Shown: one piece after another, positions 24,375 through 64,000 of the stretch
Layout: each line of letters begins with the position of its first letter
Numbering within the stretch: position 1 is the stretch's first letter
Assembly (NCBI GenBank): GCA_041660025.1
Contig: JBAZXD010000002.1
Span: 4,635-68,634, forward strand
Direction: 5' to 3'
Length of the DNA stretch: 64,000 bases
Origin: Minisyncoccota bacterium
Lineage (GTDB): Bacteria; Patescibacteriota; Minisyncoccia; Phycocordibacterales; Phycocordibacteraceae
Position numbers and translations under genes: made by a program
Notes under the pieces: generated by a model
The model's database searches: none
Seen by the model: only the letters and a program-made list of their open reading frames with translations
What the model was told of the DNA's origin: nothing

Positions 24375-24385
24375 TTTCGGTTATT

Positions 24386-30015: not shown

Positions 30016-30018
30016 TGT

Positions 30019-31191: not shown

Positions 31192-31193
31192 AT

Positions 31194-36437: not shown

Positions 36438-36518
36438 ATGGCAAAAAAGCGTAAGGCCGCGAAGAAGACAGCAAAGCGCAAGACAACGAAGCGCAAGGCT
36501 GCAAAGAAGCGCAAATAG
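36438..36518 (+). CDS. Candidate 26-aa Lys/Ala-rich micro-ORF (MAKKRKAAKKTAKRKTTKRKAAKKRK)
   Basis: ATG..TAG open frame found by reading the sequence; absent from the ORF track. Composition resembles histone H1/Hc1-like basic tails. Conserved element copy C starts at the first base after its stop codon. Confidence 0.25.
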   Translation: MAKKRKAAKKTAKRKTTKRKAAKKRK

Positions 36519-36640
36519 TTTCGTAAACAAAGTTTGCTCCCAGCGCTCGCTCGAAAAAGAAAAATCAGAATCTTTCTTTTCTCTCGCTCGCTTGGTAGTA
36601 AAAAGAAAAATCCCTCCGTTCGCGGAGGGATTTTTCTTTG
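36519..36640 (+). repeat. Conserved post-stop-codon intergenic element, copy C, ending in a canonical intrinsic terminator
   Basis: CAAAGTTTGCTCCC AGCGCTCGCTCG, then an A/T hairpin, then TCTCGCTCGCTTGGTAGTA AAAAGAAAAA, then the terminator. Confidence 0.55.
36603..36637 (+). terminator. Rho-independent terminator aaaaATCCCTCC-gttcgc-GGAGGGATttttctttg
   Basis: 8-bp GC-rich stem followed by a T-run. Confidence 0.7.
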
Positions 36641-45081: not shown

Positions 45082-45133
45082 CTTTTGTGCACAAACCCTT
45101 CCATCCCAGCCGAGATACGGCTATACTGGGGGT

Positions 45134-45910: not shown

Positions 45911-46013
45911 CTTATTTACAGGATTTCTCGTCTCGGCAAGAAGTGTTTGTTTATAATCCCGAATAAAATTAAAATATACTGACTATTTATTTAACTATTT
46001 AAGTTGTACAAAA

Positions 46014-46045
46014 ATAGAGGCGCCCTTTGGCGCCTCTATTTTATT
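46014..46045 (+). terminator. Rho-independent terminator atagaggcgcc-cttt-ggcgcctctat followed by TTTTATT
   Basis: Perfect 11-bp stem and T-run, about 100 nt downstream of the 45134..45910 gene. Confidence 0.75.
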
Positions 46046-46328
46046 GAAATGATCCTAAGCCCTCTAATCGACGTGTAGGGCGCATTCCTTTGTGTTCAGC
46101 ACAAAAACTGATCTAAGCCACCACTCTTTCCTTAAGGGCAAATATACCGGTCCGGCGTCGACGGCCTTACGCGACGCTATAGAAGCGTCTTTTACCATAT
46201 CCTGTGGCAATTCATTTCGACGTACTTACTGGTAGTTCATAGCTTCCGTTCGTGCGGAATTTATCCACATATGAATATAATGGTGCGTCAAAATACGAGG
46301 TACTATTTAGTTAATCCGGTTATCCGAC

Positions 46329-49300
46329 ATGAATGCTCCTCACTCAGAAAAGTTTATAGGAACAAAGGAAGCATCTGAACTGTCTGGGTACAATCCCGAT
46401 CATCTCTCTCGTCTCTCTCGGTCTGGAGAAATTGACGCGATACGTGTCGGACGTACGTGGTACATTGAACGCGAATCGCTGATAACCTTTTTAAAAAAGC
46501 AGGGTCGACGGGCGAAAGAATTTCCAGGACTGATCTCGGCGAAAGAAGCCTCGAAGAAATATGGCTACAGCGCCGACTACCTCGCCCGCCTCGCCCGCTC
46601 CGGCGAAGTCAGGGGTTCTCAGGTGGGCCGGACCTGGCTCGTAGACCAATCGTCACTCGATTCATTTCTCAAGCTCCAAGAGGAACGTAGAGAAGCGCGC
46701 GCGCGCGAGCTTGCGCGAGCGCGAGAGCGCGAGTACCGCGCTCGCCGCCAGACGCCGATGCATCGCGCGGTTCATCTTGTTCCGCAGGAGCAGGAACCTG
46801 TCGTGCCGGGCACAAACTCGTTCGTCTTTTTTTATAAGACGTCAGCACGGGCGCTCGCTACCGCATTCCTCGTCGTCGTGTTCGGGTCGCTCGTGGCACA
46901 GGCCGGACCGGTCGCCAAGCTCGCGGCGGGGACCACATCGGTCATACACGGCATCGCGGTCGGTTTCGATGCTGCCTTTGGCGATATCCCATCGCGTTTT
47001 GTAGCGCGCCTGGATAATTCTCGCGCAGATATGCACGCACGTTCTGTACAGGGGGCGGCGCGTCTCGCGCACCTCTCGGCGTCGCTTACAGCGCCGGAGC
47101 TTACTCACTTGGATCTTCGAGCCGCGCCGCTTGCACTTACCGTCGAGCCGCGTTCGCTACGGAGTGCGCCGCCCGCGCTCGTTGCTGATGGGAAAGCAAA
47201 TATGCGCCGATGGCGCTCTGATGCTTCCGATGCTCTCGCATTTATCTCATCGCCACCAGAGATTATGGATGCGTTGGCCGGAATTTCTGGCGCCATAATT
47301 CGTGCGGATGTATCGCTCGCATACACCCTCGCCACCGCCGCTCCCGCAAGCGCCCGCGCCACCGTCGCGCTCGTCGGCGGCGCGGGCGCAGTACTCGCAG
47401 ACGCCACAGCCGAGCTCCCGCGACTCGCCTCCGCACTCTTCCTGCGCACAACGTCAGCTCCGGCCCATCTCGCACCCGCCCTCGCCCAGGCGGTCTTCGA
47501 CGCTGAATACACTGCCGCAACACGCTTCGTCGCGTTCACCCGCACAATCTCCGACGCCTCTCTCGCCTCGATCACCAGCGCCGGCGAGCTCGCATATACC
47601 ATCACAAAAGGAACCCAGGACACTCTCCGCACCACAGGAACTCTCCTCGCTACCGCACCCGCAGCGGTCCACAACGCGTATCTCGGCGCACTCGGCACAG
47701 GCGCGCTCGCGCTCGCTGCGGTACAACCCACCCTCACCACCACCGAACAGATCGCCCTCTCCACGTACGAAACCATCCACGACTTCTTCACCTCGGCCGG
47801 CCGCGCGCTCGCCGACCTCCTCACCCCCGCCCCGATCATTGTCCTGGTGAACAACACACCGATCGCTCCGGTCCCCGTCGCCACCTCCACCCCATTGGAT
47901 AGCTCCGCATCCAACGGGGCAAGCCCCGCCGCTCCTCCTGCCTCCTCCCCTAATTCACAATTCGTAATTCCTAATTCAGTTTCGTATCCCACGTACACCA
48001 CCATCGTCCGTGGTGTCTCCGAAGACTTCGTCAACCAGTCCCTCACCTCGCTCCGCACCGAGCTCCTCGCGCGGGTCTCGAGCCTCATCCAGCCCGTCGC
48101 GAGTCAGGTGGCCACCAACGTCACCACCATCCAGCAGGTCAATATGATCCAGGACCTCTCCGACCTCATCGTCCGAAACGGCGACTTCCGGGGCGGTACC
48201 TTCGACAGCGGCGCGCTCACTAACGGCATCAGCGTTGCCGCCACGACCGGCGCCTTCGATACCCTCACTGCCGACGACTTCACCTCCGGCTCTCTCATCG
48301 CCACCGGCGCCCTCACCTCATACCAGAGCGCCACCGCACCACACTTCGTTGCCACCTCCACCACCGCCACCAGCACCTTCGCCGGCGGGCTCACAGTCGG
48401 CACCGACAAGCTCGTCGTCGACTCCACAACCGGGTACATCGGCATCGGCACCACAAGTCCGTACTCGCTCCTCTCCATTGCCGGACAGGTCGTGGGGCAG
48501 AACTTCATGGCGACCGACTCCTCAGCCACCTCCTCCTTCTCCGGGAACTTCTCGGTAGGAGGAAGCACCGGAGCGTACCTCACCGGAAACGGCTCCGGCA
48601 TCACCTTCTCCGGCACAGGCAACCACGACATCACCGCCTCCGCCGGCACGCTGCGCATCGGTTCAAACACCATCATCGGCAACATCCAGGCTCTCGACGA
48701 CACGGTGGACATCGGCACCCCGGCTGTCCGCTTCGACAATATCTATGCGAACGAAGTGAACGCCTCCACCATCGTCGGTACCCTCACCGGCGGCAACCTC
48801 ACCGCCGAGACTTTCAACATCAATTCCGACAACGCCACTGCCGACACCGAGAATGGTTATCTCTCATTCGAACGGGGCAGCATCATCCCAAACGCCCTCC
48901 TCACCTGGAACGCGGCCGAGAGTGCCAAGCGCTTTGAGTTCAACCAGCCCCTCTACATCGAGAGCGCCGACGCCTCCACCACCCTCACCACCCTTGATGT
49001 GAAGGGAGTGACGAGCCAGACCGCCGACCTTATTCGTGTGACTTCCTCAACCGGCGCGAGCCTCTTCAATGTCGGAGCAAATGGGAATGTGGGGGTGGGG
49101 ACGAATAACCCATCCGGCACATTGGATATTTCTTCGTCTGCAAGCACTGTTGTTAATGCGTACCTCGGTACCGTGTCGGCCGGGTATGGCAATGGCGGCG
49201 CTTTGAATTTTAAAGGAGCTGGGACAACAATCGGGACTATTAAAGAAACCTATACAAATAACCCGAGCGGAGACAGAGGACTAATGGAATTCATTGTTCA

Positions 49301-52300
49301 TGATGGTACTTCGGTTAGTACGAAGATGGTTATTTTCGGTAATAACGTCGGCATCGGGACGACGACGCCGTGGGGACAGCTCTCGGTCAACCCGAACGGC
49401 ATCACGGGCCCCGCCTTCGTCGTCGGCTCCTCCACCGCCACGAACTTCATCGTGACGAACGGGGGGAATGTGGGGATCGGGACGGCGAGTCCCGCTGATA
49501 AGTTTTCAAACACATCTTCTAATATTATTGATGAGAACTCGGTAGGAACTACACTAGGAAGCGGAATATCTTGGACAGCTTCTGCAAGCGGGTATCTACA
49601 GGCACTTTCCCAAATATCTTCTGGGGCAAACGCAAACGGTTTGCTTGTAAAAATTTCCGGCGCAGCAAGCACTAATAAAGCATTATCGTTAAATATTAAC
49701 GGTAGCGATTTATTTGTAGTTAATGGTCAAGGCAATGTCGGTATAGGGACAAATGAGCCTAGTTCACCCCTGCAGATACAAAGTCCCAATAGCAAAACAT
49801 TTTTGGATATACGAGGAACCGGATTCAATGCGGCGAATCAATATTCAGATTTAGATTTCACGTCTGATTCCAGTAGTCATGTGTATTCAAAAATAAGGAT
49901 GAATACGGTAACGGCTGCTTATGGAGGTAGTCTGCAGTTTTTTACTAACCCTGGACCGCTAGCCGCAACGGCTTCTTTAGTAAGAATGACAATCGATGAG
50001 ACCGGCAACGTCGGCATCGGGACGACGAGTCCGGCAACAAGTCTCGTCGTGCAGGCGGGTGGAACTGCTAGTGTTGTTAATATTGGGCAACTTTCCGGTT
50101 TTACGAATTTCAGTGGTATTGCATTCACTCAAAACGTCTCGTCCGCCGTCTCAACTTCCAACTACTCCATTTTAGGAGATGGAACGAACACCTATATAAG
50201 TCGTCCGACAGGCGGTTTCTTGTCTTTCCGTGAGAACAACGTGGACCAAATGTTCATCGCAACCGGTGGCAACGTCGGCATCGGGACGGCGAGTCCGGGA
50301 CAAAAGTTGGATGTAAGAGACGGAAAGTTTGCATTAACTGACGCAGACGTTGCCCACGGAATGACATCTTGGGCTACTACCGAAACCTATGGACTTATGG
50401 AAATAGATAGCGCAACAGCCGGAGGGCTAAGGGTCTGGGGATTCGGTGATACGGTGGGTCAGAGAGCATTAGTGAATCTTGGTATTTTAGGCGATGTTGA
50501 CCCAACCGATACTGTAGCAGCTATAACATTGGCGGCAGGTAAAAAGAGCGGGCCAACTGCCCAAGCTCTTAGTGCTCTTGAGACGGTTCTAAAAATTGAG
50601 AATTGGGGCACGGATTTGGTCACGATTTTAGGAAGCGGCAACGTCGGCATCGGAACGACGAGTCCGGCAAGCAAACTTGCAGTATCAGGAGGCGCGTCAA
50701 TCGGCGCCAACTACAACGTCGCCGCGCCAACGAACGGACTCATTGTGGAGGGGAAGGTAGGAATTGGGATGAATGGCGCATCGAGAACCTTGGACATTAC
50801 GGGGAATGTGGGAGCAACGAGAAGCAATACGCTTGTATACGACCCAACCAATTCTGCTACGTTCAACAGCATCATTAGTCTTTCAAGAACTGGCGGTAGT
50901 CTCACTGGGCGCAACGTACTTATTGATTTTGACGATGTTGGTTCAGCGGTTGGTAATTTTGGAATCGTTCAACACAGCACCGGACTGCCATATGCTGATT
51001 TTGTTTGGAATCAATACAATGGGTCTGCGTATGCGGAAACAATGCGGATTGATTACCTCGGCAACGTCGGCATCGGGACGACGACGCCGTACTCAACGCT
51101 TTCTGTTGCGGGTCAAGTTGTCGGTACTGCGTTTGTCCCTTCAGCCGCTACCGTTCCTTCGAATGGAGAATATCTGCCAGCGGCGAATACGCTGGGTTGG
51201 GCGACGAATGGCACTGCACGGATGACGCTCACTGCAGGGGACAACCAAACTGCGGCACTTACCATTACAAATCTCACTTCTGTCGCGTGGCCGGTGGCCA
51301 ATGGCGGCAATGTTAATATCTTCTCCACCAACTCGAGCGCGGATAATTCAGGAGGAACAATCGGACTCGGCGGATGGGATGGTAGCAATAACCGCTCCCA
51401 CGCAGTTATTTTTGGCGGAAAAGAGAATAACATCAGCGGGAATTTTGCCGGATATTTTGCTGTAAGTACTCAACCGAACGGAGAGAATCATACAGAAAGA
51501 TTACGCATTACATCCGCGGGCTCTGTCGGCATCGGGACGACGACGCCATGGGGACAGCTCTCGGTGAACCCGAACGGCATCACCGGCCCCGCCTTTGTCG
51601 TCGGCTCCTCAACCGCCACCAACTTCATCGTGACGAACGGGGGGAATGTCGGCATCGGGACGGGGGTGCCGTTGGCTCAACTTTCTGTCGGTAGCGGAAG
51701 CCTCGTAGACGCTACCGTTCCAGTACAAATAAATTCTGCTTCCGGGGGGCAGGCCTGGTACGGAGTAAACAAAGCCGGTGGTTATGGATTGCTGATGGGC
51801 TTCTATGACGTGCCGGCAGGGAACTTCCAGCGTGGCGGAGTGATTCGCATGGTGACGACCGATCCGCTGACTTTTGCGGTCAACAACACAACGAACGCAA
51901 TGACGATTTTGAGTTCCGGCAACGTCGGCATCGGGACGACGAGTCCGTATACGAAATTCGCGGTAGTGGATGGGACGGGTGAAATGCGCTTCCAGAATGT
52001 CAGCCAGAATAACCTGACTGTTTCCGGAACGAATGCAACAATCATCGCTGATAGCACAGGCGGAAGCTATCCGGGGTTTATGGCAAAAGTAAGTGGAACA
52101 TTAAAGGCGCAATGGTATTCGGACGCAACTAACGCCGTTACCTACACAACCGGCGCACAAATTTTCCAATCAGGGGGCAATACTGAAAAAATGAGAATTG
52201 ATACGAGCGGCAACGTCGGCATCGGGACGACCTCTCCCTACGCCCAGCTCTCCGTCGCCACGCCGAACGGCGCGACAGGAAGCCTCTCCACTCTCTTTGC

Positions 52301-54527
52301 CGTCGCTTCCTCTACCGCCTCGGCGACCACCACGCTCTTCTCTATCTCCAACACAGGCACGGCATCAGCCAACGCCATCATCCCGAACGGCCCGTACACC
52401 ACCAACCTCGCGAGCTACGACCTCGGCGCGACCGGCTCCCGGTGGAATGCTGTCTGGGCAGGCGCACTCAACATCGGCACCTCCACCTTCTCCATCAAGA
52501 GCGACTCCGCAAGCAACCTCGGCTTCTACACCGCCGCCTCCGGCGGCGGCACCCAAGCTCTCACCGTCACCTCCGCCGGCAACATCGGCATCGGGATTAC
52601 AAATCCTTCAGTTTCCCTGGATGTGAACGGCAGTTCTCGTTTTTACGGAATTGCTAATTTTGACGGCGCAACATACGCCGCTCAAGATTTTAAAGCCGCC
52701 GGCGTGCATAAGGCTTATATTGCTACGGCCAATGCAGTTTTCGGCGGAGGTTCTGCAAGCGATCTTGCCGTTGATGCCAGCGCGGGCAACCTTGTCTTGG
52801 GAGTGGGAGACGCTGAGAAGATGCGCATTCAAGTCACCACTGGCAACGTCGGCATCGGGGACGCAAATCCGCCTTCTAAATTAACCGTGAATGGTTCATT
52901 GCGATTTTATAATGTCCCCGGAGGATCGACAGGAGGAACATTCTGTTATGACACCAGCACTGGTGAAGTCGCCGCAAGTAGCGCCGGCACCTGTTCGGGC
53001 TCAGACGAGCGTCTTAAAACCAACATTGCCGACCTCCAAAACTCGGAGGGGCTCGCCGCCATCGCTGCTCTGCGTCCTGTCAGCTTTGTGTGGAAGGATG
53101 CAGCGATGGCCGCAAGCCAAGGGACCCAACTGGGCTTCATCGCCCAAGAGATGCAATCGATTCTTCCCGAGCTAGTGCTTAACGATAGCGGGACGACCAC
53201 CATTACTCTCGTCGATGGTTCTAAGCAACAAATTCCTAATACACTCTCCATTAACTACCAGAAGCTCGTTGTACCACTAGTGAAGGCGGTACAAGAACTT
53301 GATATCCGCACGGGCTTCATCGCGAGCGCCGCAACATCCACCGTTCTGACGGTGGATGTTGCGGGCAACATCGGCATCGGTACGAGTACGCCGAATCATA
53401 CGTTGACGGTCGCAGGCGACATCGGCGCCACCGGCTTCATCAACACCTCCACCCGCTCGGCCAAGACCGACATCAGCTATATCACCGCCTCCTCCTCTGA
53501 CGATATGCTGAACCAGCTCACCAATCTCAAAGTCGCCACCTATCGCTATACGATAGAAGACCAGTCAGATCCGCTCCGCCTCGGCTTCATCGCAGAGGAC
53601 GCCCAGACTATCGCCCCCGAAATCCTCTCTCCCGACGGAAAGGGCGTGGACCTCTACAAGCTCGCCACCTTCAACCTCGCCGCTACCCAGGCGCTCGCCG
53701 CGAAGTTCGACCAGATGGACACCCGTGTCACCTCGCTCGAAGACCGCATCTCTGCTCTCGAGAGCGGGGCAGTGTCCTCGGTAGGTGGTACAACGTCGCT
53801 TGCGAGCGCGATACAGAGCATCAGCAGCGCGCTCAACATTGGGAAGCTCATCTCCGATACCTTCTATGCGGCCCAAGGGTTCATCGACCATCTCACGGCC
53901 GCGAATGCGACTATCGGTTCGGCAACAGTGCCTTCGGGCGTGACATTCTATGACTCCGTGACCAAACAGCCGTACTGCTTCAGTATTGCGAACGGCGCAC
54001 CGACAACGACGCCCGGCATCTGCGCGGAGTCAACCGAGAGTACGAATCCGTTCGCTACCTCGACGCAGATAATAGATAATGGAATATCGATAGGGGATAC
54101 AGGAACGACATCCGCTCCGCTCACGATTACACTTAATGGAGCGACGCCGACGTACGTGCCGGTCGGCGGGACGTATGTCGAGCCTGGAATTGTCGTAGCT
54201 GGCGGTAGCGGGGGGAATATCCCATATCAGGTATATGTGAATGGCTACGTGTCTGATACCACGTCGCCCGCACTCGATACTTCATTGCCGACAACCTACA
54301 TCCTTACCTATCACGCGGCGGATGGGGCGGGGGAGACGGCGACCGCTTACCGATCGGTCATTGTTAAAGATCTCGACAGCACGACACCGCCCTCGACTGA
54401 ACAGACTGCGACCACAAGTTCCATAAGTATAGAGTCGACAACTCCAGTCTCGTCGACCGCCACGACGACCACGGATGCAACGATTCAATCAACCGATACC
54501 GCAACGACCACACAGTCGACCATATAA
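46329..54527 (+). CDS. Giant (2732 aa) membrane-anchored cell-surface fibre protein. Order of modules: two N-terminal HTH_17-like domains, an Arg/Glu-rich helix, a TM anchor, an Ala/Thr-rich stalk, more than 25 GNVGIGTTSP-type beta-helix repeats, two Peptidase_S74-like (tail-fibre intramolecular chaperone) modules, a DUF5011-like Ig domain and a Thr-rich tail.
   Basis: HTH copies KEASELSGYNPDHLSRLSRSGEIDAIRVGRTWYIERESLITFL and KEASKKYGYSADYLARLARSGEVRGSQVGRTWLVDQSSLDSFL. EARARELAREREYRARR helix. TM FVFFYKTSARALATAFLVVVFGSLVA. Many repeats of GNVGIGTTTP / GNIGIGTSTP. S74 signature CSGSDERLKTNIADLQNSEGLAAIAALRPVSFVWKD...GFIAQEMQSILPELV, then a second S74-like module SAKTDISYITASSSDDMLNQLTNLKVATYRYTIED...RLGFIAEDAQTIAPEI. 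Ig-like domain TPTYVPVGGTYVEPGIVVAGG...TYILTYHAADGAGETATAYRSVIVKD. Confidence 0.7.
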   Translation: MNAPHSEKFIGTKEASELSGYNPDHLSRLSRSGEIDAIRVGRTWYIERESLITFLKKQGRRAKEFPGLISAKEASKKYGYSADYLARLARSGEVRGSQVGRTWLVDQSSLDSFLKLQEERREARARELARAREREYRARRQTPMHRAVHLVPQEQEPVVPGTNSFVFFYKTSARALATAFLVVVFGSLVAQAGPVAKLAAGTTSVIHGIAVGFDAAFGDIPSRFVARLDNSRADMHARSVQGAARLAHLSASLTAPELTHLDLRAAPLALTVEPRSLRSAPPALVADGKANMRRWRSDASDALAFISSPPEIMDALAGISGAIIRADVSLAYTLATAAPASARATVALVGGAGAVLADATAELPRLASALFLRTTSAPAHLAPALAQAVFDAEYTAATRFVAFTRTISDASLASITSAGELAYTITKGTQDTLRTTGTLLATAPAAVHNAYLGALGTGALALAAVQPTLTTTEQIALSTYETIHDFFTSAGRALADLLTPAPIIVLVNNTPIAPVPVATSTPLDSSASNGASPAAPPASSPNSQFVIPNSVSYPTYTTIVRGVSEDFVNQSLTSLRTELLARVSSLIQPVASQVATNVTTIQQVNMIQDLSDLIVRNGDFRGGTFDSGALTNGISVAATTGAFDTLTADDFTSGSLIATGALTSYQSATAPHFVATSTTATSTFAGGLTVGTDKLVVDSTTGYIGIGTTSPYSLLSIAGQVVGQNFMATDSSATSSFSGNFSVGGSTGAYLTGNGSGITFSGTGNHDITASAGTLRIGSNTIIGNIQALDDTVDIGTPAVRFDNIYANEVNASTIVGTLTGGNLTAETFNINSDNATADTENGYLSFERGSIIPNALLTWNAAESAKRFEFNQPLYIESADASTTLTTLDVKGVTSQTADLIRVTSSTGASLFNVGANGNVGVGTNNPSGTLDISSSASTVVNAYLGTVSAGYGNGGALNFKGAGTTIGTIKETYTNNPSGDRGLMEFIVHDGTSVSTKMVIFGNNVGIGTTTPWGQLSVNPNGITGPAFVVGSSTATNFIVTNGGNVGIGTASPADKFSNTSSNIIDENSVGTTLGSGISWTASASGYLQALSQISSGANANGLLVKISGAASTNKALSLNINGSDLFVVNGQGNVGIGTNEPSSPLQIQSPNSKTFLDIRGTGFNAANQYSDLDFTSDSSSHVYSKIRMNTVTAAYGGSLQFFTNPGPLAATASLVRMTIDETGNVGIGTTSPATSLVVQAGGTASVVNIGQLSGFTNFSGIAFTQNVSSAVSTSNYSILGDGTNTYISRPTGGFLSFRENNVDQMFIATGGNVGIGTASPGQKLDVRDGKFALTDADVAHGMTSWATTETYGLMEIDSATAGGLRVWGFGDTVGQRALVNLGILGDVDPTDTVAAITLAAGKKSGPTAQALSALETVLKIENWGTDLVTILGSGNVGIGTTSPASKLAVSGGASIGANYNVAAPTNGLIVEGKVGIGMNGASRTLDITGNVGATRSNTLVYDPTNSATFNSIISLSRTGGSLTGRNVLIDFDDVGSAVGNFGIVQHSTGLPYADFVWNQYNGSAYAETMRIDYLGNVGIGTTTPYSTLSVAGQVVGTAFVPSAATVPSNGEYLPAANTLGWATNGTARMTLTAGDNQTAALTITNLTSVAWPVANGGNVNIFSTNSSADNSGGTIGLGGWDGSNNRSHAVIFGGKENNISGNFAGYFAVSTQPNGENHTERLRITSAGSVGIGTTTPWGQLSVNPNGITGPAFVVGSSTATNFIVTNGGNVGIGTGVPLAQLSVGSGSLVDATVPVQINSASGGQAWYGVNKAGGYGLLMGFYDVPAGNFQRGGVIRMVTTDPLTFAVNNTTNAMTILSSGNVGIGTTSPYTKFAVVDGTGEMRFQNVSQNNLTVSGTNATIIADSTGGSYPGFMAKVSGTLKAQWYSDATNAVTYTTGAQIFQSGGNTEKMRIDTSGNVGIGTTSPYAQLSVATPNGATGSLSTLFAVASSTASATTTLFSISNTGTASANAIIPNGPYTTNLASYDLGATGSRWNAVWAGALNIGTSTFSIKSDSASNLGFYTAASGGGTQALTVTSAGNIGIGITNPSVSLDVNGSSRFYGIANFDGATYAAQDFKAAGVHKAYIATANAVFGGGSASDLAVDASAGNLVLGVGDAEKMRIQVTTGNVGIGDANPPSKLTVNGSLRFYNVPGGSTGGTFCYDTSTGEVAASSAGTCSGSDERLKTNIADLQNSEGLAAIAALRPVSFVWKDAAMAASQGTQLGFIAQEMQSILPELVLNDSGTTTITLVDGSKQQIPNTLSINYQKLVVPLVKAVQELDIRTGFIASAATSTVLTVDVAGNIGIGTSTPNHTLTVAGDIGATGFINTSTRSAKTDISYITASSSDDMLNQLTNLKVATYRYTIEDQSDPLRLGFIAEDAQTIAPEILSPDGKGVDLYKLATFNLAATQALAAKFDQMDTRVTSLEDRISALESGAVSSVGGTTSLASAIQSISSALNIGKLISDTFYAAQGFIDHLTAANATIGSATVPSGVTFYDSVTKQPYCFSIANGAPTTTPGICAESTESTNPFATSTQIIDNGISIGDTGTTSAPLTITLNGATPTYVPVGGTYVEPGIVVAGGSGGNIPYQVYVNGYVSDTTSPALDTSLPTTYILTYHAADGAGETATAYRSVIVKDLDSTTPPSTEQTATTSSISIESTTPVSSTATTTTDATIQSTDTATTTQSTI
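47319..47860 (+). repeat. About 540-bp block roughly 95% identical to 55828..56370. It is the stalk-region block shared by the two giant genes.
   Basis: Both copies encode AYTLATAAPASARATVALVGGAGA...LADATAELPRLASALFLR...APALAQAVFDAEYTAATRFVAFTR... Further shared blocks: 47983-48220 vs 56458-56695, 48596-48830 vs 57086-57320, and 53290-53770 vs 62690-63140. Confidence 0.7.
49339..49490 (+). repeat. About 140-bp module encoding GNVGIGTTTPWGQLSVNPNGITGPAFVVGSSTATNFIVTNGGNVGIGT. Five near-identical copies across the two giant genes.
   Basis: Copies at about 49339-49490 and 51521-51670 (gene 1), and 59220-59365, 60149-60290 and 61536-61680 (gene 2). Confidence 0.7.
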
Positions 54528-54783
54528 AATAAACCGCAGTAAATAAGCCAAATCTCGTCTCGCCAAGACGAGCTTATGTAGGGGTCATTTCGACACAAAA
54601 GTGCATAAGCTGTTGATTTCGAGTCGACAATAATCGGCCCATAATCGTGTCGATATTTACCTTGGCTCCACTTAGGATAATCGTGGGTGGGGATAATAAT
54701 TTAGCTCTTATCCACAGGGGTCCAAAAATCCATCTGATTTCGCTGATATATCAAGTAATATATTAGATATTACAGCGATTTTC

Positions 54784-57700: not shown

Positions 57701-60700
57701 TAATTCGTTTCCAGGGCAATTCCGGTTCCTATGATCATATTATCTACACTCCAGGCTCCTCTTCAAATTTAAGAATCGGCATAACTAATGGAACGAATAC
57801 ATACGACACGGTCACCCTTACAAATGGAAATCTCGTTGGCATCGGGAATTCAGCTCCGTTGTCTAGACTAGGTGTTACTGGGAATCTCTCTGTCGGAGCA
57901 ACCTATGGGATTATCGCAGCTCCTACTTCGGGAATGATAGTTGAAGGCAACGTCGGCATCGGGACGACGAGTCCATCGCAAGCGCTCTCGGTCCAGGGCA
58001 ACGGACTGTTCTCGGGGAACCTTGCAGCTGCCAACATTACGGCGACAGGTACCATTACCAGCACATACATTGGAGGCAACGCTTTTATTGCTCCCGGTTC
58101 AACAGGATCTTCCCCCCAATATTCATTCGCCGGGTCGAGTGGGAACGGACTCGGGATGGATTCGAGCGGCAATACAATACTTCAACATTCATTTGGTAGT
58201 GCTGGTACTGGCGTCATCATTAAAACAGGTACCGGTTCGGCGGCAGAAGTGGCGCGTTTCGTTGCGGGAGGCAACGTCGGCATCGGGACGACGACGCCGG
58301 GTGCGACGCTACAAGTATATGGTTCCGGATTGTTTGGCGCTGGAGCGACCCTTTTGAGCGGGGACGTCGTCACCATTAAAGGGCAGACACGGGTTCAAGG
58401 CTCGATGATTTTCGACACTTCTCCGAGCTCCGTAAGCGCGTCGATTACCCCGAATCTTGCCGGTTACACCACCTTCAACAGCAGTTCATGGCCCATAGTA
58501 TTGCAATCGACGGGCGGCAACGTCGGCATCGGGACGACGAGTCCAGGATGGCAACTGGAAGTCGCAGGCGTCGGTTCCAAGGCGGGGAATCCCTGGGATG
58601 CAACGGGCGGAGTGGCCGCAATCACTGATACCAGCGCCTACGGGCTTGGCGAAGGAGGGCAACTTTTGTTCCAGGGTAAATATACTTCCGCCGGGGCATT
58701 AGCGATGTTTGGCGGTATCCGTGCGTTCAAGGCAAATGCTACCGATGGAAGCGCAGTTGGCAATCTTGACCTATGGTCGCGAGCGGGAGCGATTCGTTTT
58801 TATTCTACGAGTGTCCCTCAAAACGGACAGGATGGGACACCAGACGTCACGATAAGCTCAACCGGCAACGTCGGCATCGGGACGACGAGTCCGGGCCAGT
58901 TGTTGACGGTTGGGAACAATAATCAGTTTACGGTCGATAGTTCCGGCAATGTCGTGGCTACAGGGTCCATCAGCGGCACCACAATTTATGCATCATCCGC
59001 AGTTATTGGAACCAATAGCGGCGTTTTATATCTCGGTGGAAGTTCTGCAACCGTTTTGGTTGCCGCGGGAGTATTTGGTCCTATTACCGACGTTTCCCAA
59101 GATTTGGGATTTTACAATAGACAATGGAGAAATACTTACATTGGCGGCAATGTCAGGGTCGGAGCGACATATGCAGCATTAAACATCGCAGGTCCAACAA
59201 GCGGAATGATAATAGAAGGCAACGTCGGCATCGGGACGACGACGCCGTGGGGCCAGCTCTCCGTGAACCCGAATGGGATAACCGGTCCTGCATTCGTCGT
59301 GGGCTCCTCCACCGCCACCAACTTCATCGTGACGAACGGGGGAAATGTGGGGATTGGAACCGCGAGCCCATTGGCGCAATTATCTGTTGGCAGTGGCAGT
59401 CTGGCGGATGCGGTAGTTCCCGTGCAGATTAACGCCGCTTCGGGGGGCCAAGCATGGTACGGGGTCAATAAGGCCGGCGGTTACGGGATGCTCACTGGAT
59501 TTTATGATGTCGCTTCTGGCAACTTCTCTCGTGGTGGTGTTATCCGTATGGTAACGAGTGACCCGCTGACGATTGCAGTCAACAATACCGTGTCGGCAAT
59601 GACATTCTTAAGCGACGGCAACGTCGGCATCGGCACGACGACGCCCGGGTCGCGTCTGCATGTGTACAACGGTCAGGGTGGCGGATCTGTCTCCGTGAGC
59701 TCATACGACACCCTATCGGTAGAAAACAACAACATCAACTACATCAACATGATCTCTCCGACCGCCAACCGGAGCGGCATTATATTCAGCAATAGCTTGC
59801 GAGGGATTGGGGGCATTACGTATACCGGCGGTGATACAACCGCAGGGTATGGTGGTACGAATAGTTTGAATTTTTCGACCAACGGCTCAACTCAGTCTAT
59901 GGTGATCAACAGCACCGGCAACGTCGGCATCGGGACGACGACGCCGTCCTATAAACTGGAGGTGAACAATGACTCAGCCGCGACTATCGCGCGCTTATTC
60001 AGAAATCAGACTGGAGCAAACGCAGACGTAGAGTTCGGAAATAAGAGCAACACTTGGATCCACCGCGTTACTGGCGACGGAACATATGATTACACCCTCG
60101 TTAATTCTGGCAACGGAGTACGAGTATTGACAGCTCTTTACAACGGCAACGTCGGCATCGGGACGACGACGCCGTGGGGTCAGCTTTCAGTAAATCCAAA
60201 CGGTATCACGGGCCCGGCATTTGTCGTCGGCTCCAGCACGGCCACCAACTTCATCGTCACGAACGGGGGCAATGTGGGGATCGGAACGGTGAGCCCGCAG
60301 GCGAAATTTGATGTAGCCGGAAATGTCTTGCTTGGGAGCGGACAAACTAATCCTTGGGTATACTTCGGAGGTCTCACTTCCGCCTTTCCCGCATTCAAGC
60401 GAGAAGGAGCCAACATTGAGGTAAAGCTGGCTAACGACGGCAACTACGCAAACCTGTACGCGAATGCCTTCTATCCCGGTGGAAGTGGCGTTATCGACTC
60501 AGGGAGTACGGGAGTGGTGAATATAAAGAATACCACCGCCACGAACGCGGCAACATTCCGCGTATACAACACGTTCACCGACACCTCCAACTATGAGCGC
60601 GGCGTATTCGATTGGAGCACTACGGCGAACGTCCTCTCTATCGGAACGCAGGCGGCAGGGACGGGGACATTGAGGAATATTAATCTCATCGGCGGCAACG

Positions 60701-63700
60701 TCGGCATCGGGACGACCTCGCCCTCCGCCAAGCTCTCCATTCAAAACTCAGCTACCAGCTCCCCTATAATTTCTTTGAGCGATCCGCTCGGAGGAATATC
60801 ACTGGAATTGCGTGCCGGGACCTCCACTCTTAACAATACTTTCGTTGGCGTTGGAGTCGGGCAGGCCGACACAACTGGTTATTACAATACAGCGAGCGGC
60901 TACCAGGCCCTCTATTCAAATGCTACTGGTTTCTACAATACCGCTAATGGCATGCAAGCCCTTTACTCAAACACTGGCAACAGCAATACCGCCAATGGCA
61001 TGAAGGCTCTTTATTCAAACACCGGCAGCAACAATACCGCTAGTGGTGTGAACGCTCTATACTCCAACACTACTGGAGGGGGCAATACCGCTAATGGAGT
61101 GAGTGCTCTCTACTCCAACACCACCGGAGCTAACAATACTGCCATCGGTCAGTTTGCCCTTTCCTCCAATATTTCTGCTACCACCACCACAGCAATTGGC
61201 GTCAGCGCCGCTCAAGGTCCGAGCAATTACTACAATCAAGGTGGGGTGTATGTCGGCTACAGGTCAGGCTTTAGTGCGGCCACTGACTCCGACTACAACA
61301 CCCTCGTCGGCTACCAATCAGGCTACGGCATCACTACCGGCTCTAACAATATCTGGATTGGTACCGCCACCTCCTCCACCGCCATCGCCAACCTCACCAC
61401 CGGCAGTCAGAACATCCTCATCGGCAATAATATCTCGCTCCCTTCAGCCACTGCCTCGGGTCAGCTCAACATCGGCAACATCATCTTCGGTACCGGCATT
61501 ACCGGCACCGGTTCAACCGTATCAACTGGCAACATCGGCATCGGGACGACGAGTCCGTGGGGGCAGTTGAGCGTGAACCCGAACGGCATCACGGGCCCGG
61601 CGTTTGTCGTCGGATCCAGCACTGCCACGAATTTCATCGTGACGAACGGCGGGAACGTCGGCATCGGGACGACGAGTCCAACCAATTTACTTTCTTTGAG
61701 CGGCACGGGTAGTGTTTTGAGCCTCGATCGCTCAACGGGTACGAATCAACTCATTGTGAGCTATAAATTGGGAAGTACAGAATATTCGCGCATCGGTCTC
61801 GCCGGTACGACAAATAGTCTCATCACTGGGAGCGTTGCGGGAGATTTGGGACTCATGACCCTATCGCGAAAAATCATGTTTAGCACCGACTCCGGCTCTA
61901 CCGCGCACATGATTATTGACACCTCTGGCAACGTCGGCATCGGTGAGACCTCTCCCGCTTCATACGCGAAACTCACAGTAAGTCTTACGTCTGGGGCTGG
62001 CTTCACCTTACGTGGAACAACGAACTCATCGCAATTTGATATAGCCGCAGTCGGTAGTGCTGGGACATTTCTGGGACCAACTGGTGTCGGCGACACTGTA
62101 ATCCGCGAATTAACGAACAACCTGGTAATCGGCACCTACGCTGCAAAAGCTCTTATATTTGCTACGGGGAATGCAGATCGCGGGCGGATACTTAGTAATG
62201 GTGACTGGATAATGGGAGGGACTACCGTCGGCGACGGGACAAACGATGTGTGGACGTATGATAATTCAAACGACTATATAAAGAGCAGCCGCTCGCCGAC
62301 CACGCTCGCCAATCATGCGGTTTTCTACAACGGGAACGGAGCTATTGGGAGCATACAAACGAACGGTTCCGCCACAGCCTTCAACACCTCTTCAGACCGC
62401 CGCATCAAGGAGAACATTGCGACGACGACGCTCGGACTCTCGACACTGATGCAGATTTCCGTTGACGACTTCAACTTCGTCAAGGATCCGAATACGCGCG
62501 TGCAGGGTTTCATCGCGCAGGATCTGTACAACATCTATCCGGAAGCGGTCTCAATCAACGGCGACGACGGTACTGTCCCACTCGACCCATCATCCATCCC
62601 CTGGCAAGTGGACTATGGCCGCATTACCCCGCTCATCGTCAAATCCGTGCAGGACTTGAATGCGAATTTCGAGTCCCGCACCTCCTTCATCCAAAGCGCC
62701 GCAACATCCACCGTTCTGACGGTGGATGTTGCGGGGAATGTCGGCATCGGTACAAGTACGTCGAATCATACGTTGACGGTCGCCGGCGACATCGGCGCCA
62801 CCGGCTTCATCAACACCTCCACCCGAAGTGCCAAGACCGACATCTCATACGTCTCCGCCAGCACCACCGACGATATGCTGAACCAGCTCACCAACCTCAA
62901 AGTCGCCACCTATCGCTATACCATCGAGAATCAGGACGACCCGCTCCGCCTCGGCTTCATCGCAGAGGACGCACAAACCATCGCCCCCGAAATCCTCTCG
63001 CCCGACGGGAAGGGAGTTGACCTCTACAAGCTCGCCACCTTCAACCTCGCCGCTACCCAGGCGCTCGCCGCCAAGTTCGACCAGATGGACACCCGTGTTA
63101 CCTCGCTCGAAGATCGCATCTCTGCTCTCGAGAGCGGGGCAGTCAGTAGCGCGAGCGGCTCGCCGCTCGCGCTCTCCTCCTCGACGCTCGCGAGTGCGTT
63201 CGAGGGTCTCGGCGTTCTCATCAAGAACGGCATCGCCCAATTCAATACTTTGGTATTCCGCCAGCTCGTCGCGAGCAAGGACGCCGACGGCACGAGTAGT
63301 GCCGGTAGCGTGACGATACTTGTTGGCAACACCGTCGCTCAGGTCAATAATTCTCTCGTTCTCCCTTCGACCAAGGTCTTCGTCACCTTCAATTCGCAAA
63401 TCACCGGTAGCTGGTGGGTCTCGGACAAGCTCGCAGGCTCCTTCCGCGTCGTGCTCTCCGAGGCGCAGACAAGCGACGTCTCCTTCGACTACTTCCTCGT
63501 CCAGACTGAGGGCCAAATCGCGACGAGCACGCCGAGCGTATCAGGCACCATCTCTCAATCGGGCGGCACCGACGTCACACCGCCCGTCATCACCCTGCTT
63601 GGCGATAACCCGATGCACCTCTCCGTCGGCGGCACCTTCGTCGAGCCGGGCATCACCATCACCGATGACGTCGATGGCGCCATTAGCGTATACGTCGCTT

Positions 63701-64000
63701 ACGTCAACGGCGTCGAACAGCCGGACGTCGCTTCCGTTATCGACACCTCGAGCCAGACGACCTACATCATCACCTACAAGGCGACCGACCAGCGAGGCAA
63801 TTTCTCCACCGTGACTCGCTCGGTCATCGTTGGTTCGACTTCGTCCACCGCTTCCTCTGATACCACCGCGCCCGTCGTGACACTCGTCGGGGAAGCGGCG
63901 ACACAACTCACGGTCGGCGACACTTTCACCGACCTGGGCGCGACCGCCCTTGACGACGTCGATGGTGACCTGACCGCAAGCATCGTTGTTTCCGGTGCGG
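54784..64000 (+). CDS. Second giant surface-fibre protein, paralogue of 46329..54527. It is longer than 3070 aa, 3'-partial, runs off the window end and is absent from the ORF track because no stop codon is reached. Same module order as the first: one HTH_17-like N-terminal domain, an Arg/Glu helix, a TM anchor, a stalk, GNVGIGTTSP repeats, two S74-like modules and at least two DUF5011-like Ig domains.
   Basis: Frame 1 was translated by hand from the ATG at 54784 (MDPSFNENKQKNISIREATNRSGYSTGYLSNLCRTGKIVGKYSHNEWSVDIASLESFIKGQAERKEARARELARAREMEYRAH ...) with no stop codon to base 63990. TM AIAIATALLVVGGSALAA. S74-like modules at about 62390-62690 (SSDRRIKENIATTTLGLSTLMQISVDDFNFV...GFIAQDLYNIYPEAV) and 62830-63140. 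Ig-like PPVITLLGDNPMHLSVGGTFVEPGITITDDVDGAISVYVAYVNG...TYIITYKATDQRGNFSTVTRSVIV. The only ORFs the track reports here are minus-strand GC shadows. Confidence 0.65.
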   Translation, partial: MDPSFNENKQKNISIREATNRSGYSTGYLSNLCRTGKIVGKYSHNEWSVDIASLESFIKGQAERKEARARELARAREMEYRAHRVPKTPSGANLQPSTFNFQKKPPAMPLSEIIRGSLRSQAIAIATALLVVGGSALAAQASAIPQFAGKTAMLVREAALGFDDLFGDIPARIVSRIDAAENDVRRISSRIVAANAITTARIASPFLAEPDLSSLQMAPLETRTKNVLADLQSTSLTGQALDVPMITADDVQMFVLDVYGVVASPSRAARALVNAYVALGEDAYDAIAAAFSAYDSLIEKSGTRALALAATTRDTLAAAPQLVAQMNLALGGAVIKAAHTAVEADVAAAYTLATAAPASARATVALVGGAGATLADATAELPRLASALFLRATSAPAQLAPALAQAVFDAEYTAATRFVAFTRAVSDASLASITNAGELTYTITKGTQDTLRTTGTLLATAPATVHNAYLGTLGTGALALAAVQPTLTTTEQIALTTYETIHDFFSSAGRALADLLTPAPIIVLVNNTPKTPAPVATSTPVIPPSPSRSSQPSIVNSTSYPTYTTIVRGVSEDFVNQSLTSLRTELLARVSSLIQPVASQVATNVTTIQQVNMIQDLSDLIVRNGDFRGGTFDSGTLSNGLSVTATNGTFTTLTAGATTLGATSLATTTVTGDLTLSGILTANTKAVAPYFVATDTAATSTFAGMLAIGTTTPYGAGLLTVGTSSPLLYIDSTTGNLGIGTSSPASALSVAGNFLLTGTTTVTGTDSGITFTGTGNHDITASAGTLRIGSNTIIGNIQALDSTVDIGTPAVRFDKIYANEVNASTIVGTLTGGNLTAETFSINSDNVSSDQENSYLSFHRGTVSPNALLTWNAATSSKRFEFNQPLFVLDASASTTNTTLSIQSVAGQTGDVFRISSSSSATNFFTVTGAGNVGIGTNSPTANFQVTSNNSNTNSTTGVGVLLKDAMSTTNKIIRFQGNSGSYDHIIYTPGSSSNLRIGITNGTNTYDTVTLTNGNLVGIGNSAPLSRLGVTGNLSVGATYGIIAAPTSGMIVEGNVGIGTTSPSQALSVQGNGLFSGNLAAANITATGTITSTYIGGNAFIAPGSTGSSPQYSFAGSSGNGLGMDSSGNTILQHSFGSAGTGVIIKTGTGSAAEVARFVAGGNVGIGTTTPGATLQVYGSGLFGAGATLLSGDVVTIKGQTRVQGSMIFDTSPSSVSASITPNLAGYTTFNSSSWPIVLQSTGGNVGIGTTSPGWQLEVAGVGSKAGNPWDATGGVAAITDTSAYGLGEGGQLLFQGKYTSAGALAMFGGIRAFKANATDGSAVGNLDLWSRAGAIRFYSTSVPQNGQDGTPDVTISSTGNVGIGTTSPGQLLTVGNNNQFTVDSSGNVVATGSISGTTIYASSAVIGTNSGVLYLGGSSATVLVAAGVFGPITDVSQDLGFYNRQWRNTYIGGNVRVGATYAALNIAGPTSGMIIEGNVGIGTTTPWGQLSVNPNGITGPAFVVGSSTATNFIVTNGGNVGIGTASPLAQLSVGSGSLADAVVPVQINAASGGQAWYGVNKAGGYGMLTGFYDVASGNFSRGGVIRMVTSDPLTIAVNNTVSAMTFLSDGNVGIGTTTPGSRLHVYNGQGGGSVSVSSYDTLSVENNNINYINMISPTANRSGIIFSNSLRGIGGITYTGGDTTAGYGGTNSLNFSTNGSTQSMVINSTGNVGIGTTTPSYKLEVNNDSAATIARLFRNQTGANADVEFGNKSNTWIHRVTGDGTYDYTLVNSGNGVRVLTALYNGNVGIGTTTPWGQLSVNPNGITGPAFVVGSSTATNFIVTNGGNVGIGTVSPQAKFDVAGNVLLGSGQTNPWVYFGGLTSAFPAFKREGANIEVKLANDGNYANLYANAFYPGGSGVIDSGSTGVVNIKNTTATNAATFRVYNTFTDTSNYERGVFDWSTTANVLSIGTQAAGTGTLRNINLIGGNVGIGTTSPSAKLSIQNSATSSPIISLSDPLGGISLELRAGTSTLNNTFVGVGVGQADTTGYYNTASGYQALYSNATGFYNTANGMQALYSNTGNSNTANGMKALYSNTGSNNTASGVNALYSNTTGGGNTANGVSALYSNTTGANNTAIGQFALSSNISATTTTAIGVSAAQGPSNYYNQGGVYVGYRSGFSAATDSDYNTLVGYQSGYGITTGSNNIWIGTATSSTAIANLTTGSQNILIGNNISLPSATASGQLNIGNIIFGTGITGTGSTVSTGNIGIGTTSPWGQLSVNPNGITGPAFVVGSSTATNFIVTNGGNVGIGTTSPTNLLSLSGTGSVLSLDRSTGTNQLIVSYKLGSTEYSRIGLAGTTNSLITGSVAGDLGLMTLSRKIMFSTDSGSTAHMIIDTSGNVGIGETSPASYAKLTVSLTSGAGFTLRGTTNSSQFDIAAVGSAGTFLGPTGVGDTVIRELTNNLVIGTYAAKALIFATGNADRGRILSNGDWIMGGTTVGDGTNDVWTYDNSNDYIKSSRSPTTLANHAVFYNGNGAIGSIQTNGSATAFNTSSDRRIKENIATTTLGLSTLMQISVDDFNFVKDPNTRVQGFIAQDLYNIYPEAVSINGDDGTVPLDPSSIPWQVDYGRITPLIVKSVQDLNANFESRTSFIQSAATSTVLTVDVAGNVGIGTSTSNHTLTVAGDIGATGFINTSTRSAKTDISYVSASTTDDMLNQLTNLKVATYRYTIENQDDPLRLGFIAEDAQTIAPEILSPDGKGVDLYKLATFNLAATQALAAKFDQMDTRVTSLEDRISALESGAVSSASGSPLALSSSTLASAFEGLGVLIKNGIAQFNTLVFRQLVASKDADGTSSAGSVTILVGNTVAQVNNSLVLPSTKVFVTFNSQITGSWWVSDKLAGSFRVVLSEAQTSDVSFDYFLVQTEGQIATSTPSVSGTISQSGGTDVTPPVITLLGDNPMHLSVGGTFVEPGITITDDVDGAISVYVAYVNGVEQPDVASVIDTSSQTTYIITYKATDQRGNFSTVTRSVIVGSTSSTASSDTTAPVVTLVGEAATQLTVGDTFTDLGATALDDVDGDLTASIVVSGA

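Follow-up and report, generated by a model that had tools for sequence, protein, structure and literature searches.

How ultra-small, mostly uncultured Paceibacterota and their relatives find and hold host cells is poorly understood, and work on host attachment in this bacterial group has so far centred on type IV pili in Saccharibacteria. The 64,000-nucleotide stretch of DNA analysed here as a whole (positions 4,635 to 68,634 of contig JBAZXD010000002.1, assembly GCA_041660025.1; hereafter the window) contains two adjacent giant genes on the plus strand, gene 1 and gene 2, and raises the question of what such large proteins do for their bearer. An initial annotation, made from the sequence alone, had proposed a fibre or adhesin of an undescribed kind in a small-genome bacterium. 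Our analysis indicates that the two genes probably encode membrane-anchored surface fibres for attachment, built from modules of the MAT type known from Bdellovibrio, and the most likely function of these giant fibres would be host attachment. The locus is thus a concrete and widely conserved candidate for that role: its fibre is a homologue of those with which Bdellovibrio recognises prey, it keeps a fixed chromosomal position in dozens of species, and its predicted cytoplasmic helix-turn-helix (HTH) head, conserved partner gene and operator-like leader are unusual for an adhesin.

Fibre body and far-end modules

The open reading frames (ORFs) of both genes were confirmed at the lengths first reported, 2732 amino acids (aa) for gene 1 and more than 3070 aa for gene 2 (Table 1). 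The frame of gene 2 shows no stop across 3072 codons, from its ATG to the last base of the window, and its public entry of 3115 aa extends 43 aa beyond it. At NCBI, MFA5998243.1 (gene 1) is named “tail fiber domain-containing protein” and MFA5998244.1 (gene 2) “immunoglobulin-like domain-containing protein”; both entries come from a metagenome-assembled contig of 137,109 bp and are labelled Candidatus Paceibacterota, in line with the small-genome bacterium envisaged at the outset. The succession of modules read from the translations also holds, with an Arg/Glu-rich helix, one membrane helix, an Ala-rich stalk, GNVGIGTTSP repeats and a Thr-rich tail. A third gene of the same kind, g3, directly upstream of gene 1, had been overlooked.

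Gene 1 has 14 copies of the GNVGIG motif and gene 2 has 17, at spacings of 41-278 aa (mostly 88-150 aa), and the motif closes modules of about 90-130 aa rather than marking a short coil repeat, so that the “dozens” of beta-helix repeats of the initial annotation reduce to 14 and 17 motif-marked modules. None of the Pfam beta-helix or pectate-lyase models, which it had expected to match, hit any fibre segment; the beta-helix reading comes from homology to solved MAT fibres. A single-sequence search of the PDB with gene 1 returned Bdellovibrio Bd2133 (8OND), a Bdellovibrio “cell wall surface anchor” protein (8OML) and the S74/ICA domain of MyRF (7DC3, E 4e-4). When a profile built from 20 repeat modules was searched against 177,635 PDB sequences, five distinct sequences were matched, all of them Bdellovibrio MAT structures: 8OND (Bd2133, 3.7e-19, three stretches), 8OML (2.6e-13), 8OJN (2.9e-7), 8OL4 (3.1e-6) and 8ON4 (2.5e-5). 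Tail-fibre families of PHROG likewise matched the fibre body (1.7e-48). From the module-profile and PHROG matches it follows that the fibre body belongs to the known MAT / phage tail-fibre superfamily; judged by its sequence it is MAT-type, represented in Bdellovibrio (PMC10769870), and not the new kind of fibre first supposed.

The MAT fibres of Bdellovibrio bacteriovorus are surface-displayed, intertwined trimeric beta-helix fibres for prey recognition (Caulton et al. 2024, PMC10769870). Their capping-loop motif reads V-G-G/N-pi-x-x-P-x-x-x-L, a self-cleaving S74 module with SDxxxK stands at the end of 13 of the 21 members, and no Patescibacteria appear in the table of MAT homologues (PMC10769870). 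The giant fibres have in common with them homologous modules bearing the capping-loop motif (here GNVGIGTxxPxxxL), S74 with SDxxxK, a mosaic design with a conserved base and a variable body and tip, and an organism that lives on other cells. MAT fibres are about 1,000 aa long, have a signal peptide ahead of a conserved beta-rich N-terminal domain (about 130 aa), and end in S74 or a tip domain (PMC10769870), whereas the proteins described here reach 2.7-3.1 thousand aa (up to 7.2 thousand in the family), start with an HTH region predicted to be cytoplasmic, a membrane helix and a stalk predicted to be helical, and carry internal, doubled S74 modules followed by a cassette of coiled coil, beta-sandwich and immunoglobulin (Ig)-like domains. 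Scaled from Bd3182, which was modelled at about 550 Å for about 760 mature residues (PMC10769870), the fibre bodies of genes 1 and 2 would have lengths of the order of 100-130 nm.

Genes 1 and 2 are mosaic paralogues. BLASTP aligned residues 69-1793 of gene 1 with 13-1850 of gene 2; identity is 90-92% over residues 327-626 of gene 1, 74-89% in three further blocks and 20-40% elsewhere. At the DNA level, near-identical repeats occur within and between the two genes, with up to 94% identity over 300 nucleotides. Repeats and blocks of this sort could betray a short-read misassembly in which the giant ORFs are chimeric, an explanation that we consider very improbable, given that the frames stay open over 8.2 and more than 9.2 kb and that at least 27 independent representatives, of 1.4 to 7.2 thousand aa, show the same architecture, as do many loci. 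The number and order of internal modules in genes 1 and 2 could still be wrong. A second giant gene downstream of the first is also present at three other loci.

Two observations on the repeats are recorded here for their own sake. Between 49300 and 62000, about 17 copies of the GNVGIGTTSP core are conserved in their DNA as well (GGCAACGTCGGCATCGGGACGACG; e.g. at 50639-50668), with flanks about 60% identical, and a second codon version of the core (GGGAATGTGGGGATCGGGACG) accompanies a sub-module with FIVTNGGNVGIGT; this conservation may provide a substrate for inter-module recombination or be a trace of common descent. At residues ~2000-2110 of gene 2 (60780-61120), repeats of 14-15 aa with the pattern NTA(S/N)GxxALYSNTxG recall the head repeats of trimeric adhesins, and matched nothing in Pfam or the PDB, YadA-type repeats included. 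The C-terminal outer-membrane beta-barrel of trimeric autotransporter adhesins is absent from the giant proteins, which end in Ig-like domains and a Thr-rich tail.

Peptidase_S74 (PF13884) matched two stretches per protein (93.5 and 62.7 bits for a cut-off of 22), with E-values of about 1e-28 for the pair in gene 1 and 4e-19 for that in gene 2. In all four modules the catalytic Ser and the Lys five residues on are present, and across homologues the first S74 module carries SDxxxK and the second STRxxKTDI. The surface Ig-like family PF16403 (Bact_surface_Ig-like) was found once in gene 1 and twice in gene 2 (8.8e-19). Our own hidden Markov models detected 27 retrieved proteins with one to three S74 modules, 23 of which have Ig-like domains C-terminal to S74; in all 27, a further 110-500 aa or more follow the last S74 module. 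Since all 27 continue beyond it, an internal and often doubled S74 is a rule of the family: the internal, duplicated placement first noted is genuine in both genes and is not peculiar to this locus. For residues 2500-3115 of gene 2, AlphaFold2 gave three confident domains, a beta-sandwich and two Ig-like domains, and the matches to this tip are Ig-like domains from adhesins and from surface enzymes (MmChi60, Rib, Big_3, SraP, SiiE).

The alignment of the first S74 module of gene 1 to the ICA domain of MyRF evokes another function. MyRF joins a DNA-binding domain, S74 and a membrane helix; as the first two share one side of the membrane, cleavage there frees the factor. That the giant proteins should release a DNA-binding fragment from the membrane in this manner is hardly credible: the membrane helix separates their HTH from their S74 modules, which lie more than 2,000 aa away, and extracellular cleavage therefore cannot free the HTH.

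Membrane anchor and upstream partner gene

The N-terminus of gene 1 contains two clear HTH_17 domains (E 1.6e-15 on the first 200 aa; 57.5 bits for a PF12728 cut-off of 27), and it also matches the NCBIfam model “excise”, TIGR01764 (E 4.7e-10; 39.7 bits for a cut-off of 28.8). Gene 2 gave no significant HTH match in Pfam (AbiEi_4 only, E 0.05); its single degenerate copy, at residues 13-60, was recognised via the alignment to gene 1 and the family profile (1.4e-57). The HTH domains that the initial annotation assigned to both proteins thus stand for gene 1 and, in weakened form, for gene 2; similarly, of the Pfam families it anticipated, HTH_17, S74 and DUF5011 were all recovered in gene 1, and S74 and PF16403 but no significant HTH in gene 2.

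An AlphaFold2 model of residues 1-760 of gene 1, computed from an 11-sequence alignment, was confident for residues 6-130 only (predicted local distance difference test, pLDDT, 80-88). It comprises two strand-helix-helix-hairpin-helix units, the second continuing into a long helix (107-139), and reproduces the excisionase fold of a strand, two helices, a beta-hairpin wing and a helix. The best Foldseek match in the PDB was TraN of the type IV secretion system of the Enterococcus plasmid pIP501 (E 3.9e-4 over 120 columns), followed by Pukovnik Xis (root-mean-square deviation, rmsd, 1.4 Å over 48 columns), RdfS, DNA-bound BldC, DNA-bound RacA and regulators of the MerR family. TraN (4P0Y) has two excisionase-like halves in one chain, as in the tandem HTH of gene 1. 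All the same, TraN, Pukovnik Xis (4J2N), RdfS (8DGL), BldC and RacA are small soluble DNA-binding proteins, whereas here the fold forms the head, predicted to be cytoplasmic, of a giant membrane protein. Few parts of the protein are as well conserved in the family alignment as the HTH.

Each of the two proteins has a single strongly hydrophobic segment. Across the family, the 20 residues before this membrane helix contain on average 2.48 Lys+Arg and the 20 after it 1.17; 103 of 137 proteins have more before the helix and 11 more after it (Wilcoxon p 1.8e-15). The N-terminal segment has a mean net charge of +6.8 in the family, and no second hydrophobic segment was found in any of 55 long members. 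On these topology signals the HTH and the Arg/Glu helix are predicted to lie inside the cell, with the N-terminus in; for the HTH, the initial annotation had supposed this from its position ahead of the membrane helix. Beyond the membrane, the stalk retains 33-48% identity to most homologues over about 350-530 aa, and Pfam matched nothing on it.

The HTH of the partner gene g3 belongs to the subtype seen in gene 1, with 38-43% identity to each of the two copies there. In about 45 of the 47 best loci, a g3 orthologue of the same layout and strand lies upstream of the giant gene, at 280-650 bp and mostly about 600 bp; most of the orthologues have 220-300 aa, and in most the membrane helix lies around residue 200-250, ahead of a tail of some 25-30 aa. 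Their upstream regions are also conserved. Among 46 orthologues, 38 have a GCCGAGATA-type motif and 29 a TATACT-type hexamer 4-6 nucleotides before the ATG, an arrangement that is promoter-like and possibly leaderless. The elements GCCGARATA and CGGCTATMC are common to the g3 upstream region and the leader of the giant gene. A GC-rich hairpin with a T-run downstream of g3 (Table 1) is likely its terminator, although a simple terminator scan did not call it; gene 1 would therefore have its own promoter. As a side observation, the window has just two copies of the motif CTCGTCTCG(G/C)CAAGA, lying 16-27 nucleotides past the stop codons of g3 and gene 1, and similar motifs are seen at two related loci.

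The locus, its leader and its possible control

A profile of the 185-position anchor module, searched against 1.84 billion representatives, matched 210 proteins at E<=1e-30, a number that rises to 2166 at E<=1e-10. All 210 cluster representatives at the stricter threshold are labelled Patescibacteria. The module begins within the first dozen residues, or at residue 59-80 behind an extra HTH copy, in nearly all of the 150 matches listed, and lengths range from 104 to 7214 aa among the matches listed. Nearly all homologues of gene 1 open with an HTH of the form ITTKDAxELSGYTSDYLARLARSGKIxGKRIGHSW and the Arg/Glu helix ARxLARxRExEYRxH, followed by a membrane helix at about residue 110-130 and, outside, the motif GFxxTFGDIPSRIA.

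A scan of one genome per species identified 79 loci, all in metagenome-assembled genomes (MAGs) of Patescibacteria type except three weak matches labelled Gammaproteobacteria. The gene order Wzy-MurB-SecA-Obg-GatB-g3-giant gene recurs in at least 45 species. Among the 79 loci, GatB is a neighbour in 57, Obg in 51 and SecA in 45, SecA lying three genes upstream of the giant gene in those 45. At the closest loci the neighbours are about 65-86% identical, versus 35-45% for the N-terminus of the giant protein, and no anchor module was found in 2.9 million IMG/VR viral contigs. The housekeeping synteny, the neighbour identities and the absence of viral matches together indicate a chromosomal, vertically inherited and fast-evolving locus rather than a prophage; it is cellular and core. 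A giant gene whose evolution far outpaces that of its neighbours, and whose paralogues are mosaics of one another, is what would be expected of a host-range determinant.

These data bear on the idea that genes 1 and 2 are tail-fibre genes of a prophage or of phage origin, with the HTH as a fused excisionase remnant. Both PHROG tail-fibre and excisionase families do match, the NCBI name of gene 1 points the same way, S74 is typical of phage fibres, and fibres or tailspikes with a C-terminal chaperone (K1F endosialidase, 3GW6; T5 pb1, 4UW8) have the same Ser-Lys motif. The genes of the window differ from these in being syntenic chromosomal genes for membrane-anchored proteins, with S74 not terminal; no phage genes lie nearby, the neighbours being SecA, Obg, GatB and MurB, and an N-terminal membrane helix is incompatible with incorporation into a virion tail. 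Combined with synteny in at least 45 species and the lack of the anchor in IMG/VR contigs, this leaves a phage origin extremely improbable.

Two peripheral observations emerged from the same comparison. Several MAGs labelled “uncultured Candidatus Saccharibacteria” (TPA; five loci and others) have SecA, Obg and GatB 75-87% identical to those of the window, in the same order; the labels look unreliable because the SecA proteins concerned are about 80% identical to the Paceibacterota SecA of the window. Three homologues of the giant proteins have precomputed Pfam matches to intein/Hint (PF14890, PF01079) and NYN (PF01936) domains, which suggests that inteins are inserted in some giant fibre genes.

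The leader of gene 1 is conserved in DNA. Its TTATCCACA box, 68 nucleotides before the ATG, is identical to the DnaA-box consensus, and the window holds four exact copies of it versus 0.23 expected. The box or a one-base variant stands at -60 to -84, mostly at -69 or -78, in 46 of 57 related giant genes, and from the box to the ATG a stretch of about 55 nucleotides is conserved (...GCCGAAATAGTAAGTTATTATTTAGTTAATTCGGyTATCCGAC, then ATGGAT); no Shine-Dalgarno sequence was seen in the giant-gene leader. An nhmmer profile of the leader gave 52 matches in 1.06 Mb, the significant ones occurring once per locus, ending at the giant start codon and including five loci not used in building the profile. 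Leader and box are thus kept across species whose giant proteins are only 35-45% identical. RNAalifold found no consensus structure in the leader, and its one inverted repeat, GCCGAA/TTCGGC, pairs in 82% but covaries only weakly (21 of 500 shuffles were as good). The leader accordingly does not look like a structured RNA, and we read it as a DNA-level signal. Two further TTATCCACA copies lie outside a leader context, at 36299 and, on the minus strand inside a large ORF, at 10350. The copy at 36299 directly follows the MurB stop, 140 nucleotides before a 26-aa Lys/Arg-rich ORF (MAKKRKAAKKTAKRKTTKRKAAKKRK), in the region 36299-36519.

Does the cytoplasmic HTH act on DNA? The double-stranded-DNA-binding structural neighbours, the strong conservation of the HTH and the two operator-like DNA stretches conserved alongside it speak for this, and we regard DNA binding as a real possibility, if on balance a doubtful one. 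In such a scheme the HTH and basic helix, with g3, would bind DNA at the membrane, the best candidate targets being the operator-like sequences before g3 and the giant gene, and binding at its own locus would couple fibre production to that locus. More tentatively still, fibre, partner and control regions may form a core host-attachment organelle typical of this bacterial group, in which a fibre of about 100 nm would be linked directly, through its DNA-binding heads, to DNA at the membrane. If true in cis, this would be an autoregulated anchor on its own operator, formed during synthesis and insertion; as a contact sensor, it would turn host contact into gene control without a separate signalling pathway.

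The HTH may alternatively be a protein-protein handle that docks the fibre base to g3, the export machinery or a cytoskeletal element without binding DNA. RodZ sets the precedent, its HTH binding a protein partner, MreB; like the giant proteins it has an N-terminal cytoplasmic HTH, a basic stretch by the membrane, a single membrane helix and an outside domain, though its HTH is XRE-type, its C-terminal domain is small and there is no homology. The adjacency of g3 with the same HTH subtype, SecA three genes upstream in 45 loci and the presence of a degenerate recognition helix within the intact protein of gene 2 would suit a handle. The close, low-rmsd Foldseek neighbours are nevertheless mostly binders of double-stranded DNA, the net positive N-terminus and the two conserved operator-like stretches suit DNA binding, and the SecA synteny may be plain vertical inheritance. 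A pure handle is, in our view, unlikely, without being far-fetched.

A membrane one-component sensor in the manner of ToxR or CadC, in which genes are switched on host contact because contact or load on the fibre alters DNA binding by the HTH, appears distinctly unlikely. ToxR, CadC and TcpP do present the same topology, with a cytoplasmic DNA-binding domain, one membrane helix and an outside domain; conserved operator-like sites occur at the promoters of the giant gene and its partner; and a reduced genome with few regulators would favour such a direct shortcut. These sensors, however, are defined by an OmpR-type winged helix and have a small sensor domain, without homology to the giant proteins. 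A Pfam scan of genes 1 and 2 found no OmpR-type Trans_reg_C, the domain being HTH_17, of excisionase/MerR type. A rigid fibre of 2,500 aa would also be an odd sensor, and no signal-transmitting element is evident.

We therefore return to the membrane-anchored MAT-type fibre. Its membrane helix would serve as a signal anchor, the long C-terminal chain being exported via Sec, and an Ala-rich helical stalk would lead this chain across the wall. Towards the far end, the S74 modules would then register three chains and start folding of the beta-helix, after which they would probably cut themselves at the conserved Ser-Lys motifs. The outside part, about 2,500 aa, would most likely fold into an intertwined beta-helical trimer, a fibre of the MAT / tail-fibre type. 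The beta-sandwich and Ig-like domains at its far end, together with the variable modules, may bind the host-cell surface, which would make the fibre a candidate for host attachment by an episymbiotic Paceibacterota cell. The initial annotation had spoken of a cross-envelope fibre. If Patescibacteria are monoderm, the term can mean membrane and wall only.

Several points weigh against this reading or parts of it. It draws on domain content, MAT homology, topology signals, family size, synteny and leader conservation, from which we infer trimer formation, cleavage, host binding and DNA binding; the beta-helix fold itself comes from sequence homology only. AlphaFold2 monomers gave no usable structure for the stalk (helices with pLDDT 30-40). 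Of the two regions that the initial annotation put forward for modelling, the N-terminal HTHs were confident and the S74 region yielded no usable monomer model, its modules being poorly modelled as expected for an obligate trimer treated as a monomer. Self-cleavage at the first S74 module would shed a far-end cassette of about 500 aa including the Ig-like domains, a poor fit to an adhesive tip. The HTH of gene 2 lacks the near-invariant residues D27, R31 and G44 of the family alignment and its leader has diverged as well, so the HTH cannot be essential for every copy. Finally, a sigma-70 consensus scan called no promoter in the leader, and because TTATCCACA equals the DnaA-box consensus its binder could be DnaA and not the HTH.

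In a full-text literature search we met with no account of a Patescibacteria branch of these fibres, nor of its HTH-membrane-helix-stalk anchor, partner gene, fixed locus or leader. What seems undescribed so far is thus an anchor that replaces the signal peptide and N-terminal domain of MAT fibres, together with a conserved partner, a chromosomal locus and a leader.

Feature coordinates and neighbouring genes

Table 1. Features of the giant-fibre locus, in window coordinates.
Feature	Position	Strand	Description	Basis
g3 upstream conserved region	45082-45133	+	TGTGCACA, CTCTTCC, AGCCGAGATACGGCTATACT, 5 nt, ATG	Upstream sequences of about 45 orthologues compared
g3	45134-45910	+	258 aa, MFA5998242.1; directly upstream of gene 1	HTH_17-like domain and membrane helix
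g3 HTH_17-like domain	45164-45298	+	aa 11-55	Pfam HTH_17, E 1.7e-5, 25.5 bits, just under cut-off 27
g3 membrane helix	45782-45838	+	aa 217-235, after an acidic linker of ~150 aa, before a 23-aa tail	Hydrophobic segment
Motif 3' of g3 stop	45927-45941	+	CTCGTCTCGGCAAGA	One of only two window sites
Hairpin and T-run	46010-46045	+	AAAAAUAGAGGCGCC-CUUU-GGCGCCUCUAUUUU, GC-rich; likely g3 terminator	Fold; region z-score -3.6
Gene 1 leader	46261-46328	+	TTATCCACA box (46261-46269), then conserved stretch ending TTATCCGAC before ATG	Comparison of related loci
Gene 1	46329-54527	+	2732 aa, MFA5998243.1; single-pass, N-in membrane-anchored fibre protein (predicted)	Uninterrupted ATG ORF
Gene 1 tandem HTH domains	46353-46673	+	Excisionase-type winged HTHs, aa 9-58 and 68-115; predicted cytoplasmic	Pfam HTH_17, AlphaFold2, Foldseek
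Gene 1 Arg/Glu-rich helix	46647-46745	+	aa 107-139, running on from second HTH	AlphaFold2 model; ARxLARxRExEYRxH conserved in alignment
Gene 1 membrane helix	46851-46907	+	aa 175-193, single	Kyte-Doolittle 1.95; family positive-inside statistics
Gene 1 Ala-rich stalk	46908-48488	+	aa 194-720, FGDIPSR motif by membrane; predicted helical	Family alignment; AlphaFold2 pLDDT 30-40
Gene 1 fibre body	48606-53000	+	aa ~760-2224; coiled-coil entry region and 13-14 MAT-type modules, each closed by GNVGIGTTSPxxxL	PDB and PHROG profile matches
Gene 1 S74 module 1	53001-53348	+	Ser2225/Lys2230, SDERLK	Pfam stretch 2225-2284; MyRF ICA match 7DC3
Gene 1 S74 module 2	53448-53735	+	Ser2374/Lys2379, STRSAK, then coiled coil	Pfam; homologue motifs
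Gene 1 Ig-like domain and Thr-rich tail	54126-54524	+	Ig-like domain aa 2600-2679	PF16403, E 6.8e-11
Hairpin 3' of gene 1 stop	54554-54572	+	CTCGTCTCGCCAAGACGAG	Same motif as after g3 stop
Gene 2 box	54708-54716	+	TTATCCACA, 76 nt before ATG; rest of leader diverged	Exact match; leader profile does not detect it
Gene 2	54784-64000	+	First 3072 of 3115 aa, MFA5998244.1	ATG start
Gene 2 membrane helix	55150-55206	+	aa 123-141	Sole strongly hydrophobic segment
Gene 2 stalk and fibre body	within 54784-64000	+	Stalk, then 14-17 MAT modules, 5' of S74 module 1	Motif positions, alignment
Gene 2 S74 module 1	62392-62718	+	Ser2537/Lys2542	Pfam, motif
Gene 2 S74 module 2	62818-63105	+	Ser2679/Lys2684	Pfam, motif
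Gene 2 beta-sandwich	63283-63510	+	aa 2834-2909	AlphaFold2, matches to adhesin domains
Gene 2 Ig-like domains	from 63589	+	Two domains	PF16403, AlphaFold2

The giant genes are surrounded by ordinary chromosomal genes, which encode a Wzy-like/TPR protein, MurB, an LCAT-like hydrolase, SecA, Obg and GatB. No tRNA was found in a search of the window, and an Rfam scan returned nothing at gathering score; between g3 and gene 1 it gave no more than sub-threshold noise.

The LCAT-like gene, for an alpha/beta-hydrolase of 985 aa (36689-39646), is inserted between MurB and SecA. At most related loci MurB and SecA stand much closer together without it, and a homologue was found at two loci only, in another position. 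A low-GC island at about 14000-32000 (GC 0.43-0.48 versus 0.53-0.63 elsewhere in the window) is rich in surface-glycan genes. It encodes glycosyltransferases of families 1, 2, 4 and 9, two UDP-GlcNAc 2-epimerases, a sugar dehydrogenase, an epimerase/dehydratase, a cytidylyltransferase, methyltransferases, a flippase-like protein and a glycerophosphotransferase-like protein, and may be a horizontally acquired or variable glycan locus.

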